DNA of 64,000 nt. Origin: Escherichia coli. GTDB taxonomy: Bacteria > Pseudomonadota > Gammaproteobacteria > Enterobacterales > Enterobacteriaceae. Every line of letters begins with the position of its first letter. Position 1 is the first letter of the stretch. Below the pieces are notes generated by a model. The model made no database searches and was not told where the DNA came from. It saw nothing but the letters and a program-made list of their open reading frames with translations. The position numbers and the translations under genes are program-made. The DNA lies in NCBI RefSeq assembly GCF_046105845.1, contig NZ_CP151004.1; one strand, 5' to 3'. Shown here piece by piece: positions 460-46,184 of the stretch.

Positions 460-739
460 ATATTGTGGTACTTTTTGTGGGAGTCATCCACTTACGCACT
501 TTGTTTTGCTATGCCAGCAGTTAGCTTCTGCTGTAAAACTATTCATGCAGCAAACCTGCACTTCACCACAATGGTTAGCATACTTTTCCTGATTAAGTTA
601 TTGCCAAATATGCTGGCCATTGTTTCATGTATTGGACCTCCTTACTATTTATTAAAGAGATCCAATATTCACCACTCTGTCTGTATCTCCACTCAGGCAT
701 CAGCCTTCTTCGTTATCGTATACAGACAAACTATGAATT

Positions 740-955
740 TTAATCAGTAATTATGACATTTGCTGCTGCAGGACCTTTAGCACCACTCTCTACAGAGAAG
801 GTAACCTTTTGACCTTCAAATAAGGTTCGAAAATTATCATTCTGAATCGCAGAAAAATGCACAAACACATCTTTACTACCATCAACAGGAGAAATAAAGC
901 CAAAACCTTTATCAGCGTTAAACCATTTTACTAAACCAGTCATTTTATTTGACAT
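740..955 (-). CDS. cspB: Cold shock protein CspB (CspA family)
   Basis: 71 aa [38 protein letters not shown]...; canonical RNP1/RNP2 motifs of the CspA family. Confidence 0.9.
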
Positions 956-1255
956 TCTACATTCCTTAACTTGAGCCTTTCGGCATAAATGGCTTGTATA
1001 ACAGAAACGACTTCGTACTTAATTGGAGAGACTCAAAGAAGGAATAAGTGAATAACACCTGAAATGAGAACTGCTTTAGTAAACTACTTCGTATATCGTC
1101 TGTTCTTCAAACCGACGCAATCATTAACGCATAGTTGAACATATGAAGCAATGTTTATTTTAGACATCCAGCCATCTTCAACCCCATCAAAAAACTATAG
1201 CTTTCTTCAGGAACGTGTGTATAGTGCGCCCAGTTATCAGTATTAAGGAATTTTT

Positions 1256-2649: not shown

Positions 2650-3645
2650 TTACGCCAGTACGCCAATTGCCAGCGCACGATCGATAAAACGAAATATCAG
2701 CTCCAGTTGGGAGCCATACTTCTCTTCAAATGTCACGGTATCCGCATGCAGCTCGTCGTGATGCTTTCTGCACAAAGGCAACACAAAGAGATCATGCGCT
2801 TTTGTACCCATTCCACCCTGACCGTGGCCTATCAGGTGGTGGGGATCATCAGCTGGCTTTCCACAACATGCGCACGGCTGCGTCTTAACCCAGCGCGTGT
2901 ACTTTTCATTAACCCAGCGGCGACGTTTGGGGCGTAACATAAAAGACTCCGGCGACTCCGGATCCACTTTCAGCGCCAGCACCTTTTTCGCTTTATCCTG
3001 GATGATGCTGGTGGCAGGAACCGAAGGCACAAGGTCACTTTCCCGGGTGACAGATGGCACAACAGGCTTCGGTAATCTCAGTGCCTTACGGGCTGCACTT
3101 TCCGGTAAGGCATCCGCCAAATCATTACGAACCAGCCACCAGCACAGTTCCGGCATTGTCACAACGTGACTGTCATCAAAACCGAGATCCCGACGCACGA
3201 CAGACAACACCCAGCGGGCACAGTTATCCGTTGCCATTGATTCCAGCCGTTCCGTGAACTGGTCACGCAGCTGGTTATCGCAGTGCCAGCACAGACGAAT
3301 TGCTCCCGGAGCGTGCCGCATTGTGGTCATGTTCTCGCTGTGCCAGTCGGAATGAGGCCACTGACAGCCCTTTTCACGAAGTAACCAGCTTTCAAGACAT
3401 TCCACGCCACCAGCACGACGGATCACTGCCTCATTGCGGAACACGGCCCGAACGGCAGGATCATCCGCCAGCGGTTGTGATGCCGCCGGAACGGCACCAC
3501 TGGCGAAAGATGAATAACGTTCCGGCTCAGGCTCCAGCAGGACACGCCCCTGCATAAACAGGGGCATCAGCTCTGAACCTGGCCTGAACAATACAATCCC
3601 CATACGCGGGGCAATTTCAGGGGTCAGTAGTGCTCTCACGGTCAC
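2650..3645 (-). CDS. Prophage protein with HNH-like motif (YdfU/DUF968-like)
   Basis: 331 aa; C-terminal CACCGKPADDPHHLIGHGQGG...HDLFVLPLCRKHHDELH resembles HNH nuclease signature. Confidence 0.7.
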   Translation of the reverse strand: MTVRALLTPEIAPRMGIVLFRPGSELMPLFMQGRVLLEPEPERYSSFASGAVPAASQPLADDPAVRAVFRNEAVIRRAGGVECLESWLLREKGCQWPHSDWHSENMTTMRHAPGAIRLCWHCDNQLRDQFTERLESMATDNCARWVLSVVRRDLGFDDSHVVTMPELCWWLVRNDLADALPESAARKALRLPKPVVPSVTRESDLVPSVPATSIIQDKAKKVLALKVDPESPESFMLRPKRRRWVNEKYTRWVKTQPCACCGKPADDPHHLIGHGQGGMGTKAHDLFVLPLCRKHHDELHADTVTFEEKYGSQLELIFRFIDRALAIGVLA

Positions 3646-6485: not shown

Positions 6486-6718
6486 GCTGCACCTCCGAGA
6501 TGCTTCATGTTTTTTCCGGAGCAAAAGGCTATAAGCGGCATACTGATGCGGTAATTACGGCCCAGCGGTTCACAAATCACCTTCTGACATTCACGGTCAA
6601 CCAGGCTAACACGTAGAACATGCCCTGCAGGCGTGGTGTACCACTGCCCAACTGTAGGAATTGATGTTTTTTTACGCTGAAGCAAACGGCAAATATTGAG
6701 GATCAACGGATTAAGCAT
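6482..6718 (-). CDS. Hypothetical prophage protein
   Basis: 78-aa ORF translationally coupled (ATGA overlap) to the replication gene. Confidence 0.45.
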   Translation of the reverse strand: MLNPLILNICRLLQRKKTSIPTVGQWYTTPAGHVLRVSLVDRECQKVICEPLGRNYRISMPLIAFCSGKNMKHLGGAA

Positions 6719-7547
6719 GACGATGCCCTCCGCTGATATTCAGGAGACGGTGAATATGAAAATTAGCCTTATCCGCCAGACGAATACGTTCAGCCTGCAA
6801 GTTAAGAAGGGTTTCTACCAAAACCTGATGCGCCTGCGGATCCGAAAGAGTTACCTTGCGCAGAGCACGTAGTGCAGTTGTTACATAACTGAGTTTATGT
6901 AAGTCTTCATCATTCAGACGAGTGAGGGCTGGGACAGTAGCCATGATGGCAGCCTCCGATAACAGTGAATTACCTTCACCACCGGAAACGCCAATTTCGC
7001 TGGTGGTGAACTGAACGGGGTTGGCGTAACCGGCGTTATCGGAAACCGGCGCACCTTTCGGTGCCCCCGTCCAGCCCACCATAATTTGGGTGTGCACAGA
7101 CACAGACGATAAAAAAGACGCTGGCGCGTCATATATCGCCGATAACATTTCCAGGACGCCAATCCCGTCACCCGCTTTATAAGGTGCCTGAACAGTGTAA
7201 CGTCCCGGAATGGCAGAATCAATGTGCTGGTGGTCCTTCACACTCAACAAAATCACGCCTGAATTTCCACAAAGGACTAAAGCACTCATGCGGGTAGTCT
7301 TTGCGAAGATAGATAACGCGCTGTGTTTCTGGTTCCCAACGAATAACATGGACATAAAGCCCTCTTCCGTCACGAAACCAGCGGTTAAGTTCCCGCACAA
7401 CTCGCCCCCCACAGTCAGGTAAAGTTCTCTGTGGTTACTTACAGCCAGGTGATTTGGTAATCTGCATTCATGCCGTAACAACAGGTGTTCAGCGACACTG
7501 ACCACCAGCTGTTGCGACAAACGGTTATTTGCCGTTAAACTGTTCAT
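6711..7547 (-). CDS. Hypothetical prophage early-region protein
   Basis: 278-aa ORF in the cro-side early operon; no motif recognised. Confidence 0.55.
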   Translation of the reverse strand: MNSLTANNRLSQQLVVSVAEHLLLRHECRLPNHLAVSNHRELYLTVGGELCGNLTAGFVTEEGFMSMLFVGNQKHSALSIFAKTTRMSALVLCGNSGVILLSVKDHQHIDSAIPGRYTVQAPYKAGDGIGVLEMLSAIYDAPASFLSSVSVHTQIMVGWTGAPKGAPVSDNAGYANPVQFTTSEIGVSGGEGNSLLSEAAIMATVPALTRLNDEDLHKLSYVTTALRALRKVTLSDPQAHQVLVETLLNLQAERIRLADKANFHIHRLLNISGGHRHA

Positions 7548-8107
7548 GCGTTAGTTTCTCCACAGACACAAAACGCCACGACGCCCGGAGCTGCACACTC
7601 GCGGGCGTCACTCTTTTCTGGAGCGCAAAAGATTTTGTAGACCAGTGCTGCATGCTCTTGGAGCTTCGAAATTGACAGATACAACTCATCATTAATTGCT
7701 GTCTGCTCGTGTGGCTCCACGACCCCATCTTCGATTGCCGAACGAATCTGCTTTGAGTAATTCCCGATCTGTTCGATGACTTCCAGCAGGCGCTGGTTTA
7801 TATCGGCGTTCTCTACTTCCTCAATTTCAGGAAGCGATACGAACACCCCACCAGCAGACTGTGCGACAGCATCCGCAATGTAGTGAGTGTCAGCCGCGCG
7901 CTGTAAAACCATTGCCCATCCCAGCGGGAAAATCTGATCGCCATCGGCACGAAGGCGGTTAAATAATGCGTTCTCTGTTACATCCAGCCAGTCAGCTGCT
8001 TCAGCGTAACCACCCGGCAACGCTGCGATAGTTTTTCTGACAGCTTTCACGTACCACTCAGGCTGTTTTTCTACTTTCCAGTGATACTTACCCACGGTTA
8101 GCCTCAT
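7544..8107 (-). CDS. Hypothetical prophage regulatory protein (cII position; possibly YdaT-like)
   Basis: 187-aa ORF immediately downstream of cro-like gene. Confidence 0.5.
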   Translation of the reverse strand: MRLTVGKYHWKVEKQPEWYVKAVRKTIAALPGGYAEAADWLDVTENALFNRLRADGDQIFPLGWAMVLQRAADTHYIADAVAQSAGGVFVSLPEIEEVENADINQRLLEVIEQIGNYSKQIRSAIEDGVVEPHEQTAINDELYLSISKLQEHAALVYKIFCAPEKSDARECAAPGVVAFCVCGETNA

Positions 8108-8138
8108 CGTTCTGTGGTTAAAAATTGAAGGTGTTCTG

Positions 8139-8339
8139 TTAATCTTTCGGATAGATATCCGGTCTTAAGTCAGATTTCGTAATTGCACCTGACGTGCATT
8201 GCTCAAGTTTTTTCGCCAGCACAAAACTGGCTTTTTTATAACCATTGAAAACCAGCCGTAAGTAGCCAGGTGTTGAGCCAACTTTTCCGGCCAACTCGCC
8301 CTGCTGTTCTTTGGTTAAAGAGTCCCAATACGCTTTCAT
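8139..8339 (-). CDS. Cro-like HTH regulator
   Basis: ORF 8139..8444; probable start at internal ATG 8339 (MKAYWDSLTKEQQGELAGKVGSTPGYL...); divergent from repressor gene. Confidence 0.6.
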   Translation of the reverse strand: MKAYWDSLTKEQQGELAGKVGSTPGYLRLVFNGYKKASFVLAKKLEQCTSGAITKSDLRPDIYPKD

Positions 8340-8394
8340 ACAATATGTACCTCCAGTATACATATTACATGATTGAAATGAACCTTCAAGATAC

Positions 8395-8413
8395 TTGTAC
8401 CTTATCGGTACAA
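8395..8413. promoter_or_regulatory. Putative operator palindrome in cro/cI intergenic region
   Basis: TTGTACC-ttatc-GGTACAA perfect 7-bp inverted repeat between divergent cro-like and cI-like genes. Confidence 0.35.
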
Positions 8414-8429
8414 AGGTTTTAATTTCGTT

Positions 8430-9104
8430 ATGAAAACAATCCATGACATCCGGCGGTCTAACGCCAGAAAACTGAGAGATGGTGTTGGCGGAAATTCATC
8501 CTTTGCCACCATGATTGATCGCGAGCCAACCCAAACCAGCAGGTTTATGGGGGATGGCGCTACTAAAAATATCGGTGACAGCATGGCACGGCACATCGAA
8601 AAATGTTTCGACCTGCCTGTCGGATGGCTTGATCAAGAACACCAGACAACGAACATCACAAAAAAACCTGATGTTTCAATCACTAACAAACAAATAACGT
8701 TAGTCCCTGTCATATCATGGGTACAGGCCGGAGCATGGAAAGAAGTTGGCTATTCTGAGGTTGATTTGAGCACAGCAGAAACGTATCCCTGCCCTGTACC
8801 CTGTGGCGAAATGACTTATATCTTGCGGGTGATTGGTGATTCAATGATTGATGAGTACCGCCCTGGAGACATGATTTTTGTTGATCCCGAAGTCCCTGCC
8901 TGCCACGGTGACGACGTTATTGCATTGATGCACGATACAGGCGAAACCACCTTCAAGCGATTGATAGAAGATGGAACACAGCGTTATCTCAAAGCATTAA
9001 ACCCAAACTGGCCTGAGCCTTACATTAAGATTAACGGTAATTGCTCTATAATTGGTACAGTGATTTTCTCGGGAAAACCAAGAAGATACACAATAAAGGC
9101 CTAA
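8430..9104 (+). CDS. CI-like prophage repressor (HTH + S24 LexA-type peptidase domain)
   Basis: 224 aa; C-terminal LRVIGDSMIDEYRPGDMIFVDPE ... FKRL resembles S24 Ser/Lys autoprotease. Confidence 0.85.
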   Translation: MKTIHDIRRSNARKLRDGVGGNSSFATMIDREPTQTSRFMGDGATKNIGDSMARHIEKCFDLPVGWLDQEHQTTNITKKPDVSITNKQITLVPVISWVQAGAWKEVGYSEVDLSTAETYPCPVPCGEMTYILRVIGDSMIDEYRPGDMIFVDPEVPACHGDDVIALMHDTGETTFKRLIEDGTQRYLKALNPNWPEPYIKINGNCSIIGTVIFSGKPRRYTIKA

Positions 9105-9118
9105 TCAATATTTATGAA

Positions 9119-9139
9119 CCTGCTTCGGCAGGTTTTTTT
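9119..9139 (+). terminator. Rho-independent terminator after repressor gene
   Basis: cctgc-ttcg-gcagg followed by TTTTTTT. Confidence 0.7.
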
Positions 9140-9772
9140 ATACTTGACAATGTACCTATGAGATACATAATGTATCCAAAAGAAACATGAGGCAGGCAAG
9201 ATTCAAACAAAATTTGGTTGTAACACGGCGTATGGCACATGCGTCGTTAGCGGTCTGGGGACGTTAAAGGGGACAATCCACTCCTTGCTAGGGCAAACAA
9301 ACCAGGTAGCCGGAATGTGCAAGTCAATGATGATGCTGATAAGACGCCTAACCAGCGTGGCGATCCGGTTTGACGCCTGGGAAGAGACCAGGGTGCAACG
9401 ATGAGGGCATTTATGGAGCCGCGACAAAGTGTGGTGCCGTAACTGGCTAAGTGCTCTCAGCGTTGTGGTCATCCGCGAAATGGCGCGGCGGTAAGTATGG
9501 CTGGGTTACTCTTTCCCCGTTGAGGACACCGGATTGTCAGGTTGACCATACGCCTGAGTGACAACCCCACCACAACAGCCACTGCTTTGGCGGTACCAGT
9601 TTGTACACTTGCTTCCGGCTGGTACCGCTCTTTTTACAAAACAGAGAAGAGCATCACCGGACGACGGGCTCATAACCCAATCCATCCGGGCGGCTGCCAC
9701 CGCAGGTGTTCTTCTCTGTTTTGTGGAGAAACCAACCGACCTTGCAGGGTCGATATGATGAGGAGCAGCAAA

Positions 9773-10135
9773 ATGGCTAGCGAACGCAGTACTGATGTGC
9801 AGGCATTTATCGGGGAGCTGGACGGCGGCGTATTTGAAACCAAAATCGGCGCAGTTCTCAGTGAAGTCGCTTCCGGTGTGATGAACACGAAAACCAAAGG
9901 TAAGGTCTCACTCAACCTGGAAATCGAACCATTTGATGAGAACCGTGTGAAAATCAAACACAAACTCTCATATGTTCGCCCGACTAACCGCGGGAAAATT
10001 TCCGAAGAAGACACCACCGAAACGCCGATGTATGTCAATCGCGGTGGTCGCCTGACTATTCTGCAGGAAGACCAGGGACAATTACTGACTCTTGCCGGTG
10101 AACCTGACGGAAAACTACGCGCAGCAGGTCATTAA
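9773..10135 (+). CDS. Hypothetical prophage protein (YfdP-like)
   Basis: 120 aa from ATG 9773 with GAGGAG RBS (MASERSTDVQAFIGELDGG...). Confidence 0.55.
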   Translation: MASERSTDVQAFIGELDGGVFETKIGAVLSEVASGVMNTKTKGKVSLNLEIEPFDENRVKIKHKLSYVRPTNRGKISEEDTTETPMYVNRGGRLTILQEDQGQLLTLAGEPDGKLRAAGH

Positions 10136-10200
10136 TATCGTTCTTAATTAACTGATTATTTATCTCATCACTGAATATCTTTATATAGTGAGGACTTATT

Positions 10201-11025
10201 ATGTCTCAGAACTTAGACGCAACCGCAATTAATCAAATCCATGCCCTTATTTCTGCTCAGGGTGTTAATGAAATTATCAGTAAGATTGGTGCCGATGCTG
10301 TGGTATTGCCTGAGAATTTCCGCATTCATGATCTGGAAAAATTTAATTTAAATCGCTTCCGTTTCCGTGGTGCGCTTTCCACTGCCAGCATCGATGACTT
10401 TACCCGTTATTCTAAAGATCTTGCAGATGAAGGCACCCGCTGCTTTATCGATGCTGATAATATGCGTGCCGTCAGTGTACTTAACCTGGGTACTATTGAT
10501 GAACCAGGTCACGCAGATAACACCGCCACTCTCAAACTGAAAAAGACAGCACCGTTCTCTGCCCTGTTGTCTGTTAACGGCGAGCGTAACTCCCAGAAGT
10601 CACTGGCAGAATGGATTGAAGACTGGGCCGACTACCTTGTGGGCTTTGATGCTAATGGTGACGCTATTCAGGCAACAAAAGCGGCTGCGGCAGTCCGTAA
10701 AATCACGATTGAAGCAAACCAGACCGCTGATTTTGAAGATAATGACTTCAGCGGCAAACGCTCCCTGATGGAATCTGTCGAAGCGAAGACCAAAGACATT
10801 ATGCCAGTGGCATTTGAAATTAAATGCGTTCCGTTTGAAGGTCTGAAAGAACGTCCGTTTAAATTACGCCTCAGCATTATCACTGGCGATCGTCCTGTAC
10901 TGGTTCTGCGCATTATTCAGCTGGAAGCGGTGCAGGAAGATATGGCTAACGAATTTCGTGATCTGCTTGTTGAGAAATTCAAAGACAGCAAAGTAGAAAC
11001 CTTTATTGGTACTTTCACCGCCTGA
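10201..11025 (+). CDS. yfdQ: YfdQ-like prophage protein
   Basis: 274 aa [24 protein letters not shown]...; matches my recollection of K-12 CPS-53 YfdQ. Confidence 0.75.
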
Positions 11026-11152
11026 TTTCATTACTGCAAATGCCCCTGCGGGGGCATTTATGGAAACGTAATTAACTCAATAATCACCGGATGGTGAGGG
11101 CTTCCTTTTACCCAAACTCAGCGCGGTGCAGCGCATATACGTGGAGAACAAA

Positions 11153-11689
11153 ATGTCATTTATTAAAACTTTTTCCGGGAAGCATTTTTATTATGACAAG
11201 ATAAATAAAGACGACATCGTGATTAACGATATCGCGGTTTCCCTTTCAAATATCTGCCGCTTTGCCGGTCATCTTTCTCACTTCTACAGTGTCGCCCAAC
11301 ATGCGGTGCTTTGCAGCCAGCTGGTGCCGCAGGAATTTGCTTTTGAAGCGTTAATGCATGATGCAACAGAAGCGTATTGCCAGGATATTCCCGCTCCACT
11401 GAAACGCCTTCTTCCTGACTATAAACGGATGGAAGAAAAAATTGACGCCGTAATCCGTGAGAAATACGGGTTACCCCCAGTTATGAGTACGCCCGTGAAA
11501 TATGCCGATCTTATCATGCTGGCAACCGAACGCCGCGATCTCGGGCTTGATGATGGCTCTTTCTGGCCTGTACTGGAAGGCATCCCGGCAACAGAGATGT
11601 TCAACGTGATTCCACTGGCACCTAGCCATGCCTACGGGATGTTTATGGAACGTTTTAACGAGTTATCGGAGTTACGCAAATGCGCATGA
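11153..11689 (+). CDS. yfdR: YfdR-like HD-domain phosphohydrolase
   Basis: 178 aa from internal ATG (MSFIKTFSGKHFYYD...); HD motif region ...HFYSVAQHAVLCSQL... Confidence 0.75.
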   Translation: MSFIKTFSGKHFYYDKINKDDIVINDIAVSLSNICRFAGHLSHFYSVAQHAVLCSQLVPQEFAFEALMHDATEAYCQDIPAPLKRLLPDYKRMEEKIDAVIREKYGLPPVMSTPVKYADLIMLATERRDLGLDDGSFWPVLEGIPATEMFNVIPLAPSHAYGMFMERFNELSELRKCA

Positions 11690-18606: not shown

Positions 18607-18693
18607 GCGAAGGTGGCGGAATTGGTAGACGCGCTAGCTTCAGGTGTTAGTGTCCTTACGGACGTGGGGGTTCAAGTCCCCCCCCTCGCACCA
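18607..18693 (+). tRNA. leuQ: tRNA-Leu (CAG)
   Basis: 87 nt GCGAAGGTGGCGGAATTGGTAGAC...CTTCAGGTG...CCTCGCACCA; anticodon loop CTTCAGGT (CAG); encoded CCA. Confidence 0.95.
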
Positions 18694-18721
18694 AAAACCA
18701 CGTTGATATTGCTCGCACTGG

Positions 18722-18808
18722 GCGAAGGTGGCGGAATTGGTAGACGCGCTAGCTTCAGGTGTTAGTGTTCTTACGGACGTGGGGGTTCAAGTCCCCCCCC
18801 TCGCACCA
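18722..18808 (+). tRNA. leuP: tRNA-Leu (CAG), one variable-arm substitution vs flanking copies
   Basis: 87 nt; identical to copy 1 except C-to-T at 18769. Confidence 0.95.
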
Positions 18809-18842
18809 AACGAGGCGATATCAAAAAAAGTAAGATGACTGT

Positions 18843-18929
18843 GCGAAGGTGGCGGAATTGGTAGACGCGCTAGCTTCAGGTGTTAGTGTCCTTACGGACG
18901 TGGGGGTTCAAGTCCCCCCCCTCGCACCA
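18843..18929 (+). tRNA. leuV: tRNA-Leu (CAG)
   Basis: 87 nt; identical to copy 1. Confidence 0.95.
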
Positions 18930-45765: not shown

Positions 45766-45842
45766 GTATTTAGCGCGGTGCGGATGTGCGCCAACACACC
45801 CGCACCGCTCATCACAATCACTATTCCAGGAGAATAGCAGTT

Positions 45843-46184
45843 ATGACTGACACGCATTTTATTGCACAACCGTTCGAAGCAGAAGTCTCCCCGGCAAATA
45901 ACCGTCAATTAACCGTGAGTTATGCGAGCCGCTACCCGGATTACAGCCGTATTCCCGCCATCACCCTGAAAGGTCAGTGGCTGGAAGCCGCCGGTTTTGC
46001 CACCGGCACGGCGGTAGATGTCAAAGTGATGGAAGGCTGTATTGTCCTCACCGCCCAACCCCCCGCCGCTGAAGAGAGCGAACTGATGCAGTCGCTGCGC
46101 CAGGTGTGCAAACTGTCGGCGCGTAAACAAAAGCAGGTGCAGGCGTTTATTGGAGTGATTGCCGGTAAACAGAAAGTCGCGTAA
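45843..46184 (+). CDS. symE: SOS-induced toxin-like protein SymE (AbrB/SpoVT fold)
   Basis: 113 aa [52 protein letters not shown]... Confidence 0.9.

Follow-up and report, generated by a model that had tools for sequence, protein, structure and literature searches.

A likely leader of structured RNAs between the repressor and first early-left genes of an Escherichia coli prophage

A 64,000-nucleotide (nt) stretch of Escherichia coli DNA (contig NZ_CP151004.1; hereafter the window) contains what reads as a temperate-phage immunity region, and within it a gap lies between the repressor gene and the first early-left gene (9140-9772; features below are on the plus strand unless stated otherwise). 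The gap is non-coding. We consider it likely that it is the transcribed, untranslated leader of a repressor-controlled early-left operon and an array of RNA genes and RNA signals. From 5' to 3' we find a candidate leftward promoter (PL), a structured RNA that we call module A, a long helix (P6), a small-RNA unit formed by a closed domain (module B) and a terminator hairpin (T1), and a second large structure (H2) ahead of the ribosome-binding site. Covariation shows that module A, P6 and H2 are real RNA structures. Module A and H2, both strongly supported, are to our knowledge undescribed so far, and other parts of the gap have earlier names: sRNA-17, the region upstream of DicF and the STnc100 architecture. 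A sequence-only reading of the gap had offered a structured RNA as one possible content; more than one is present, with strong covariation support for two elements.

The core of module A occupies 9205-9400 and is supported by covariation and a covariance model. With P6 the module spans 9205-9466, and its covarying core comprises about 180 nt. The helices of module A are P1 (9226-9230/9242-9246), P2 (9254-9257/9303-9306), P4 (9344-9347/9355-9358, loop CUAACCA) and P5 (9376-9380/9388-9392, loop GAAGAGA), and a candidate loop-to-strand pseudoknot would join GCACAU (9235-9240) to AUGUGC (9315-9320). The structure was drawn by hand on an alignment (A2) of 23 sequences less than 95% identical to each other, and its pairs were then counted. 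Standard pairs form in 99.3% of cells, compared with 27-44% in controls with a slid 3' partner; ten pairs are changed on both sides (one to three when slid), and none of 500 shuffles reached the observed 56 cells changed on both sides. Helix P5 appears as CCUGG/CCAGG, CCUCG/CGAGG and GCCGG/CCGGC, and P4 as ACGC/GCGU, GGGA/UCCC and AGGGA/UCCU. The plus strand is identified as the RNA strand by two pairs, U53-G113 (U-G, invariant) and G27-U43 (G-U, predominant). The unpaired segments UAUGGCACAUG, GGUAGCCGGAAUGUGCAAG, YUNACCA, GGCGAU, GGUGUGAC and GGAAGAG are invariant or nearly so in all 23 sequences, and a 19-base run is invariant across the Enterobacterales genera sampled. We rejected the RNAalifold consensus (26-28/130-132 and 43-45/118-120) for the local hairpin P1: its pairs undergo A-U/G-C and C-G/G-U/G-C exchanges, of which the long-range pairs show none.

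The covariance model derived from A2 gives module A 152.6 bits and, with filters off, finds neither a second copy nor anything else above 6 bits in the window. Held-out members score 122-173 bits, and the model has no match in SfV, ST64B, phiNP, Qin or HK022. A covariance-model scan against Rfam, which the sequence-only reading had proposed, found no family match for 9140-9772. The scans covered 8000-11000 at E ≤ 10, a 286-nt segment (9455-9740) under laxer filtering and, at gathering thresholds, the whole window; this last scan returned nothing within the gap. Module A has no match in Rfam 15 at E ≤ 10, and for H2 and module A the scans gave only noise (CC0196, E 5.9, on the minus strand, and MIR1094 and the Hairpin ribozyme, E of 1 or more). 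As the elements of the gap correspond to no catalogued family, Rfam returns nothing for it. Four diagnostic module A strings are likewise absent from the searchable full-text literature. The plus strand folds better than its shuffles over 9178-9640 (z -2.3) and over 9465-9780 (z -3.9).

Of 5426 complete E. coli genomes, 1836 carry module A; 554 of its places are on plasmids, and the annotation under the match is "None" in all but one of the matches listed. Its exact central 22-mer retrieves 120 viral contigs. A 19-mer retrieves 24 loci among species-representative genomes, 22 of them in Enterobacterales; the genera with module A are Citrobacter, Kosakonia, Klebsiella, Phytobacter, Pseudescherichia, Pseudocitrobacter, Superficieibacter, Buttiauxella, Candidatus Erwinia dacicola and Escherichia. 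The remaining two loci, short contigs of metagenome-assembled genomes labelled Bacillota and Lachnospiraceae, are probably contamination.

Three unrelated temperate lineages carry the module, namely SfV/mEp460-type lambdoids, P1-like plasmid prophages and epsilon15-like podoviruses, and in all three it lies 3' of a promoter with operators or an operator-like palindrome. In the lambdoids (the window, mEp460, mEp390 and a Citrobacter braakii prophage) it begins 30-70 nt 3' of PL. In phage P1 it begins one base past the CCA end of the transfer RNA (tRNA) tRNA-Ile(CAU), 5' of ban, and is located inside the C1-controlled ban operon, 2.3 kb 3' of Pban and after a DicF-like terminator region; this operon also has a module B-like segment that overlaps the annotated "dicF-like region" right after Pban. 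In the epsilon15-like phages (phiV10, SPN9TCW, Tyrion, BUCT711) it follows a TTGACA-N17-ATTACC promoter. In epsilon15-like phages and related prophages (loci L008, L128, L137, L140, L146 and L153), this promoter overlaps the perfect palindrome TTACCTTTTAGGTAA, probably an operator that puts module A and tRNA-Arg under repressor control. In most epsilon15-like phages tRNA-Arg(UCU) begins right where the 3' strand of P6 ends (45 of 136 distinct contexts), and Tyrion and BUCT711 have other cargo after CGUUGUGG. Cargo switches at the junction CGUUGUGG, being either a tRNA or a closed domain that starts with GUGGU and ends with ACCAC.

A type I-E array of clustered regularly interspaced short palindromic repeats (CRISPR) in the chromosome of E. 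coli 2012C-4502 (NZ_CP027440.1, 1868888-1868919; L248, 401-432; repeat GAGTTCCCCGCGCCAGCGGGGATAAACCG) holds a 32-nt spacer, CGTCGTTAGCGGTCTGGTGACGTTAAAGGGGT, that matches the P1-type variant of module A. A host has thus acquired immunity against module A. The protospacer corresponds to window positions 9241-9272 and is preceded by ATG, which we take to be an accepted type I-E protospacer-adjacent motif.

Module A is closed off by P6 (9395-9413/9448-9466), a helix of 18 pairs with unpaired A9401 and G9460 and a variable apical insert (9414-9447); its 3' strand ends at the CGUUGUGG junction. The strands change together among variants (GAGGGCAUU/AGUGCUCUC, GAGAGAGUA/UACUCUCUU, GAGCGCACU/AGUGCGCUC and GGAAAAGGCG/CGCCGUUUCC), with compensatory versions in Klebsiella, Escherichia whittamii, P1-like elements, Pseudescherichia, Buttiauxella and others. 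Although the sequences differ, the free energy is -18 to -34 kcal/mol in most variants, and apical inserts range from 48 to 154 nt among them. Because it combines 18 pairs with two unpaired bases, P6 is a plausible RNase III substrate and a candidate cleavage site. A reading of its 3' strand as boxA (UGCUCUCAG / UGCUCUUUC) was rejected, as this strand changes in step with its partner and its sequence is not conserved. Positions 9462-9466 are used both by P6 and by the closing helix of module B, which makes the two pairings partly alternative.

The apical insert of P6 contains, in some phages, two hairpins that resemble tRNA T-arms (GUCUGG-UUCGAUU-CCAGAC and GUCCG-UUCGAUU-CGGAC). They are located at about 1630-1715 in SPN9TCW (L128), 1205-1300 in phiNP (L245) and 1190-1290 in Kp4866-6 (L244), and could be T-loop tertiary modules or tRNA remnants. 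ARAGORN reports no tRNA at these hairpins in SPN9TCW, the sole locus of the set that was scanned.

Downstream of P6 lies the small-RNA unit. Its closed 5' domain, module B (9462-9576), is bounded by a closing helix formed by GUUGUGGU (9462-9469) and ACCACAAC (9569-9576), which covaries from U-A to C-G with wobble variants. It is followed by T1 (9577-9635), a small-RNA hairpin and intrinsic terminator with a stem at 9590-9599/9619-9628, a 19-nt loop (UUUGUACACUUGCUUCCGG), a U-tract at 9629-9635 (tail UCUUUUU) and a free energy of -21.2 kcal/mol. In the K-12 Qin prophage, the segment directly 5' of DicF shares 88-92% identity with module B, and phage P1 sequence just 3' of Pban shares 76%. By sequence comparison, module B is homologous to the DicF-upstream segment, and T1 is identical to the 3' end of sRNA-17 at the sites of published oligonucleotides. 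Every one of 123 module B loci has a terminator-type hairpin behind the module (GGCGG...CCGCC-U5) with a hypervariable loop; we counted DicF in 56, the window T1 type in 45 and several other variants, among them single-nucleotide variants of the two main types.

T1 occupies a DicF-type position, a terminator hairpin directly after a Qin-type 5' domain in a repressor-controlled early operon. In the Qin locus (L006) module B ends at about 3108 and DicF (Rfam) occupies 3133-3184, a distance of 25 nt; in the window the T1 stem begins 13 nt 3' of module B. The Qin dicBF operon resembles the window in having a repressor-controlled early promoter, module B, a terminator-hairpin RNA and a long-range hairpin before the next ribosome-binding site. 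It differs in that three small open reading frames (ydfABC) stand between promoter and module B unit, in that module A is missing and in that the hairpin 3' of DicF is not homologous to H2. T1 and DicF themselves have only UUUGGCGGUAYCAGUUU in common, and the DicF model (RF00039, gathering threshold 48 bits) has no match at E ≤ 10 in 8000-11000 or 9455-9740. As controls, Qin DicF scores 76.7 bits and an SfV hairpin nearly identical to T1 only 15.7 bits. In Qin, DicF derives solely from a polycistronic transcript of the DicA-repressed promoter dicBp, with a 190-nt form made by RNase III and a 53-nt form made by RNase E, and no internal promoter for it was found (bioRxiv 10.1101/2023.04.14.536235). 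By our computation, 190 nt back from the DicF 3' end falls at about 2995-2999 of L006, immediately 5' of GGUUGUGGC, the module B boundary.

The small RNA sRNA-17 of E. coli K1 RS218 is 193 nt long, was mapped by rapid amplification of cDNA ends (RACE) and was seen on a Northern blot (Song et al. 2020, PMC7719688). Among its published oligonucleotides (PMC7719688, Table S2), the 5' RACE primers and the Northern probe are antisense to the plus strand and the 3' RACE primers are sense. Oligonucleotides match the window without mismatch at 9569-9587 and 9603-9634, the latter including the antisense 'full length F', and at these sites the 3' ~65 nt of sRNA-17 are identical to the window. Every oligonucleotide maps to mEp460, where sRNA-17 occupies 2765-2958 of L003; the equivalent ends in the window are 9461 (5') and 9634 (3'). 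The 5' end falls at CGUUGUGG, inside the 3' strand of P6 and at the same relative place as the end of the 190-nt Qin form. sRNA-17 and the window unit share their locus, in an mEp460-like prophage, and the same 3' hairpin and terminator; they differ in the internal 5' domain, which is another variant (GAAUGCGCAGGCUGAUGCGCG...) in sRNA-17 and of the Qin type in the window. The Northern probe and the internal oligonucleotides (~110 nt) have no match in the window at up to two mismatches. Because a Qin-type internal domain replaces the RS218/mEp460 type, the window unit appears to be a chimeric relative of sRNA-17 and not the identical RNA.

The sRNA-17 study treats this RNA as an independent gene and draws no link to DicF or STnc100 (PMC7719688). 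We regard it as more likely that sRNA-17 is a processed piece of the PL leader. The "promoter" fragment of that study (9212-9461 in the window) consists of module A and P6. Its primers for quantitative reverse-transcription PCR map to 9212-9233 and 9568-9587 (PMC7719688), and any product consequently needs a transcript that spans module A and module B. An internal promoter for the small RNA 5' of 9461 was judged less likely, as the promoter scan finds none and a TAAGTG with a 22-nt spacer is unconvincing.

The architecture of STnc100 recurs here as well. The STnc100 consensus consists of a closing helix (UGGUG...CACCA) round a multi-hairpin domain and then a terminator, and the window is alike, with its closing helix (9462-9469/9569-9576), multi-hairpin domain and T1 terminator (9590-9635). 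The STnc100 model (RF02076, gathering threshold 47) has no match in the window at E ≤ 10; at the homologous position it scores 39.5 bits in SfV and 35.1 bits in ST64B, both below gathering. A common ancestor has been reported for the PasD prophage small RNAs and STnc100 (bioRxiv 10.64898/2026.05.13.724894). PasD is located close to the late-gene antiterminator Q, whereas the window unit lies in the PL leader.

Module B fills the slot that tRNA-Arg has in the epsilon15-like phages. No tRNA was found in 8900-10000 by ARAGORN, and RF00005 has no match there at E ≤ 10. That module B mimics a tRNA for RNase P (tRNA-Arg slot, GUGGU/ACCAC stem) is left as an idea, as no T-arm or cloverleaf could be shown. 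Two further observations concern relatives of this unit. In phage P1, between module A and ban (L004, ~2700-2790), UUUUCUGGUGAUGAC matches the first 11 bases of DicF (UUUCUGGUGAC...) just 5' of the ban ribosome-binding site, in addition to the dicF-like region after Pban. In the uncultivated virus genome 651053022_000007 of IMG/VR (L175), module B stops after GGGGTTATTC and is followed by the 3' end of 16S ribosomal RNA (GGATCACCTCCTTA), a spacer and a tRNA, and this is probably a chimeric assembly.

Directly 3' of the T1 U-tract, H2 (9636-9724) consists of a 20-bp stem (9636-9655/9705-9724) with a three-way junction and has a free energy of -51.2 kcal/mol. Across 11 diverse sequences 94.1% of its cells are paired and nine pairs are changed on both sides; none of 500 shuffles reached the observed value, and slid controls gave 39-50%. 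Arm a (9657-9668/9676-9689), with the conserved loop CUCAUAA, is conserved in sequence (CGACGGGCUCAUWACCCAAUCCAYCCGG). Arm b (9690-9693/9700-9703) covaries, with the exchanges GCGG/CCGC and GCUG/CAGC, or is swapped for longer inserts. H2 recurs at this location in SfV, ST64B, phiNP, Kp4866-6 and prophages of Kosakonia, Phytobacter and Citrobacter. What comes after it is in every case GGAGAAA, then a small hairpin, a Shine-Dalgarno sequence and a YfdP/Sb37-like gene. In the window, sequence reading and a hairpin scan place the small hairpin at 9735-9754 and the Shine-Dalgarno sequence GAGGAG at 9761-9766, with a spacer to the ATG at 9773 (whole segment 9735-9772). Equivalent small hairpins stand before the ribosome-binding site in ST64B, phiNP and Kp4866-6. 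Its perfect duplex of 20 bp points to RNase III processing or control of translation, functions that such duplexes have in other phage leaders. H2 is most likely a processing or translation-control element for the first gene, and its conserved junction suggests something more specific.

Upstream of module A, a PL-like sigma-70 promoter is predicted at 9144-9171, with TTGACA (9144-9149), a 16-nt spacer and CATAAT (9166-9171). It matches 11 of 12 consensus positions, is the top site of the promoter scan in 8000-10400 and has a predicted transcription start near 9178. The promoter adjoins the intrinsic terminator of the repressor gene, which lies just outside the gap (9116-9141, with hairpin and T-run at 9116-9135; GAACCTGCTTCGGCAGGTTT and then a T-run). 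The repressor gene lies on the same strand, 5' of the promoter, which therefore occupies the PL position, and the sequence-only reading, which had placed the gap there, is borne out by a near-consensus promoter directly after the terminator. The phage Ayreon record annotates a promoter at the equivalent spot. Possible operators are ATGTAYC motifs that overlap the promoter, two in direct orientation (9150-9156 and 9170-9176) and one inverted (9162-9168). Conservation with phages of other immunity begins only at 9197, just 3' of the promoter, as expected if promoter and operator are immunity-specific.

These elements suggest the following course. Transcription would start at the PL-like promoter, near 9178, and the transcript would first fold module A, closed off by P6. 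Cleavage of P6 by RNase III would free module A as a discrete RNA and create the 5' end at about 9461. The resulting small RNA of about 175 nt (9461-9634), consisting of module B and T1, would be the counterpart of the 190-nt DicF form and of the 193-nt sRNA-17. Trimming by RNase E may follow and leave a short hairpin RNA of some 55-60 nt, corresponding to 53-nt DicF; the variable loop of this short RNA would pair with targets. T1 would end most transcripts and thereby attenuate the operon, and read-through transcripts would carry H2 for processing or translation control of the first gene. The RNase III and RNase E cleavages, the termination efficiency of T1 and the roles of H2 and module A are inferred.

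Several points weigh against this account. It is incomplete for its largest part, module A. The structures were drawn and counted on the same sequences and the shuffle control ignores relatedness, both of which inflate the support somewhat. The strands of the candidate pseudoknot are invariant, and covariation neither supports nor opposes it. Beyond the closing helix, internal covariation of module B is sparse, and either this helix or P6 may be shorter in vivo, as they compete for 9462-9466. A loop of 19 nt is unusually large for a terminator. Against ftsZ (-80 to +60) T1 RNA pairs no better than its shuffles in RNAduplex (fraction 0.5), in a crude and underpowered test in which DicF itself is not significant (0.18). 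The authors of the sRNA-17 study propose for that RNA its own ArcA-regulated promoter, placed inside the module A/P6 region (PMC7719688). The proposed RNase III cut in P6 draws on lengths and on RACE ends in relatives, and the transcription and processing steps proposed for the exact window sequence draw on homology.

As an alternative, the gap could be an antitermination site, either nut-like and served by an unrecognised N-like protein, or put-like, with module A or H2 RNA binding RNA polymerase in cis to allow read-through of T1 and later terminators. We hold this to be improbable. Its appeal comes from the map, as lambda nutL/N and HK022 putL likewise lie in the leader, 3' of PL and 5' of the first early-left gene, and HK022 also lacks N and uses RNA (PMC9378689). 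As the sequence-only reading had noted, no N-like gene is evident, and domain and family searches found none among the flanking genes tested. The strong terminator T1 between PL and the genes, and another that the Ayreon record annotates after the DUF2303 gene, make some read-through mechanism plausible. The long invariant unpaired stretches of module A are as expected of an RNA that binds a conserved host machine, and in all three phage types the module follows a promoter with operators or an operator-like palindrome. A nut site, however, was taken to comprise a boxA (CGCUCUUA / UGCUCUUUA) and a boxB hairpin, both conserved, with a matching site in the operon of the rightward promoter (PR) and an N-family protein, and the nut-type site that the sequence-only reading had suggested is not borne out: there is no N gene, no conserved boxA/boxB pair and no second copy of the stretch. 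The search for boxA/boxB elements that it had recommended yielded only one boxA-like string, CGCTCTTTTT (9625-9634), which was rejected because it is the descending stem and U-tract of T1 and is not conserved in relatives, becoming CCGTCCTTTTT in SfV, CCGCCCTTTTT in phiNP and GCCGACCTTTTT in ST64B. BLAST finds no repeat of any part of the gap elsewhere in the window and module A is single there, which argues against a nutL/nutR or putL/putR pair, as either would need a copy on the PR side. The HK022 put region (nun-cI-cro) shows no similarity beyond chance matches of ≤ 13 nt, and put RNAs have about 70 nt and two stem-loops, compared with about 180-260 nt and five or six helices in module A. 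The settings of module A also speak against such a role: in phage P1 it lies mid-operon, past a terminator region, in epsilon15-like phages it heads a tiny tRNA-Arg unit and no long operon, and the leaders of SfV, ST64B and phiNP have T1, H2 and the same downstream genes but no module A. H2, lying 3' of T1, would be unable to rescue it.

Two further alternatives deny the gap an RNA function. That it is inert mosaic debris (recombination scars, decayed tRNA or small-RNA genes) or a DNA-level site (operators, a recombination hot spot) would agree with its strikingly mosaic make-up, with breakpoints at CGTTGTGG, and with the T-arm-like hairpins inside P6 of some relatives, which could be tRNA remnants. 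Yet compensatory changes in at least six helices are unexpected for debris or DNA sites, and the invariant 19-base run, the strand-specific G-U pairs and the carriage of module A by a third of the E. coli genomes count against it too, as does the fact that Northern blot and RACE have revealed, in a relative, an RNA of the module B/T1 part (PMC7719688); we judge it very unlikely. To small protein genes hidden in the gap we give the slightest chance of all. The candidates were a 39-residue plus-strand open reading frame (ORF; 9285-9404), an 89-residue minus-strand ORF (9203-9472) and an extension of the first gene from a TTG at 9542. Several public records annotate hypothetical proteins here, but they disagree on strand and frame, and the 39-residue ORF, unbroken in 42 of 45 close homologues, is uninformative because these sequences are more than 89% identical. 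The sequence-only reading had seen no convincing ORF, and this holds. The longest stop-free run has 100 codons, compared with 92 ± 23 in same-base shuffles, and ORF lengths are those expected at random. Variable sites in 45 homologous sequences are spread 40/36/45 over the three phases of 9197-9772 but 5/5/35 over the codon positions of the adjacent gene (9773-10135). No candidate ORF of the gap shows three-base periodicity or third-position bias, the 89-residue ORF is unbroken in only 14 of 45 homologues, and divergent homologues have indels of lengths not divisible by three and retain their base-pairing; the small-ORF hypotheses were rejected on these grounds. The G+C content, described in the sequence-only reading as normal and not AT-rich, is 52.0% in the gap, above its surroundings (48.8% in the window, 45-46% in the flanking genes).

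The gap is far from a random sequence, and its conservation is mosaic. It is conserved in 134 phage records, and parts of it occur in 4702 of the 5426 complete E. coli genomes. The whole gap is 98-99.7% identical in 2H10, cdtI, Ayreon and a series of Stx2c phages, and mEp460 is 88% identical from 9197 onward. Other relatives share segments: 9212-9389 with P1, P7 and D6 (78%), 9225-9468 with phiV10-type (epsilon15-like) phages (82%), 9462-9584 with the K-12 Qin prophage (88-92%) and 9588-9772 with SfV, in part also with SfII and ST64B. The distance from the repressor to the homologous first gene is 815 nt in ST64B, about 990 nt in phiNP and about 1070 nt in SfV. The leaders of these three phages and of Kp4866-6 (unannotated) have the same kinds of parts in the same order, with other modules in the first slots.

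In phages without module A, another conserved non-coding module, ACAGGCAGGACGCCCACGAAGUAGCCGCCNGGGGCAUAUGAAG..GGAUGAUUCG, is found directly 3' of PL (SfV, L002, ~2590-2680; ST64B, L243, ~940-1010; phiNP, L245, ~835-905). It has no strong Rfam match and appears to fill the first leader slot.

Phages carry other structured non-coding RNAs beside tRNA genes, such as GOLLD, ROOL and the phage T4 stable RNAs C and D, whose function is unknown. Module A is like these in adjoining tRNA-Ile(CAU) in phage P1 and in preceding tRNA-Arg(UCU) in the 45 contexts mentioned above. It is much smaller than GOLLD or ROOL, has no Rfam match to either and, among the sampled loci, is confined to Enterobacterales. 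Its conservation is of riboswitch or ribozyme grade, with no annotation in nearly all records inspected and no Rfam family, and its place beside tRNA or small-RNA cargo, transcribed from operator-type promoters, points to an early role after induction or infection. We tentatively propose, at somewhat less than even chance, that module A represents a class of phage structured RNAs, undescribed to date, that has its own biochemical role and is not a passive leader. It could be a ribozyme, could capture a conserved host machine (RNA polymerase, an RNase, or an enzyme of tRNA handling or defence) or could work together with the adjoining tRNA or the cargo in the tRNA slot.

For the small RNAs, the comparison joins DicF, sRNA-17 and STnc100/PasD in one modular design, a closed 5' domain with an exchangeable terminator-hairpin "seed" cassette, and locates this design in early-operon leaders. 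It also changes the reading of sRNA-17, whose "promoter" fragment would be module A itself. Genome annotators at present fill this leader with spurious hypothetical ORFs, and the small ORFs placed in this gap by public records are mutually inconsistent in strand and frame.

The neighbouring genes frame the gap as follows. Directly 5' of it, a Peptidase_S24 repressor is encoded at 8430-9104. The right boundary at 9772 given by the sequence-only reading is exact, as the downstream ATG is at 9773; this first early-left protein gene (9773-10135) encodes 120 residues of unknown function similar to SfV orf32/Sb37/YfdP (phrog_204, E 1e-49), and no Pfam family was found for it. Domain matches identify a DUF2303 (YfdQ-like) protein at 10201-11025 and a YfdR-like HD-domain protein at 11126-11689 and, on the minus strand, a helix-turn-helix gene in the Cro position (8139-8444), CII (CP76; 7544-8107) and an Ash-family ORF of 278 residues (6711-7547).

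Inside the Ash-family ORF, Rfam detects C4 antisense RNA (6999-7086, minus strand, 82.8 bits) and isrK (7111-7187, minus strand, 55.4 bits), and SfV annotates this ORF as 'immunity region'. The site resembles an RNA-based immunity module of the P1 immI kind, located on the PR side, and the 278-residue ORF call may be partly spurious. Farther along, three tandem tRNA-Leu(CAG) genes (18607-18929, plus strand) resemble the host leuQPV cluster, which suggests that the prophage ends before about 18.6 kb and that the remaining window, from this cluster on, is chromosome. Other Rfam matches in the window are a cspA-type thermoregulator 5' untranslated region (677-1116, minus strand, 156.5 bits) and the SymR antitoxin RNA (45772-45848, minus strand, 93.5 bits).

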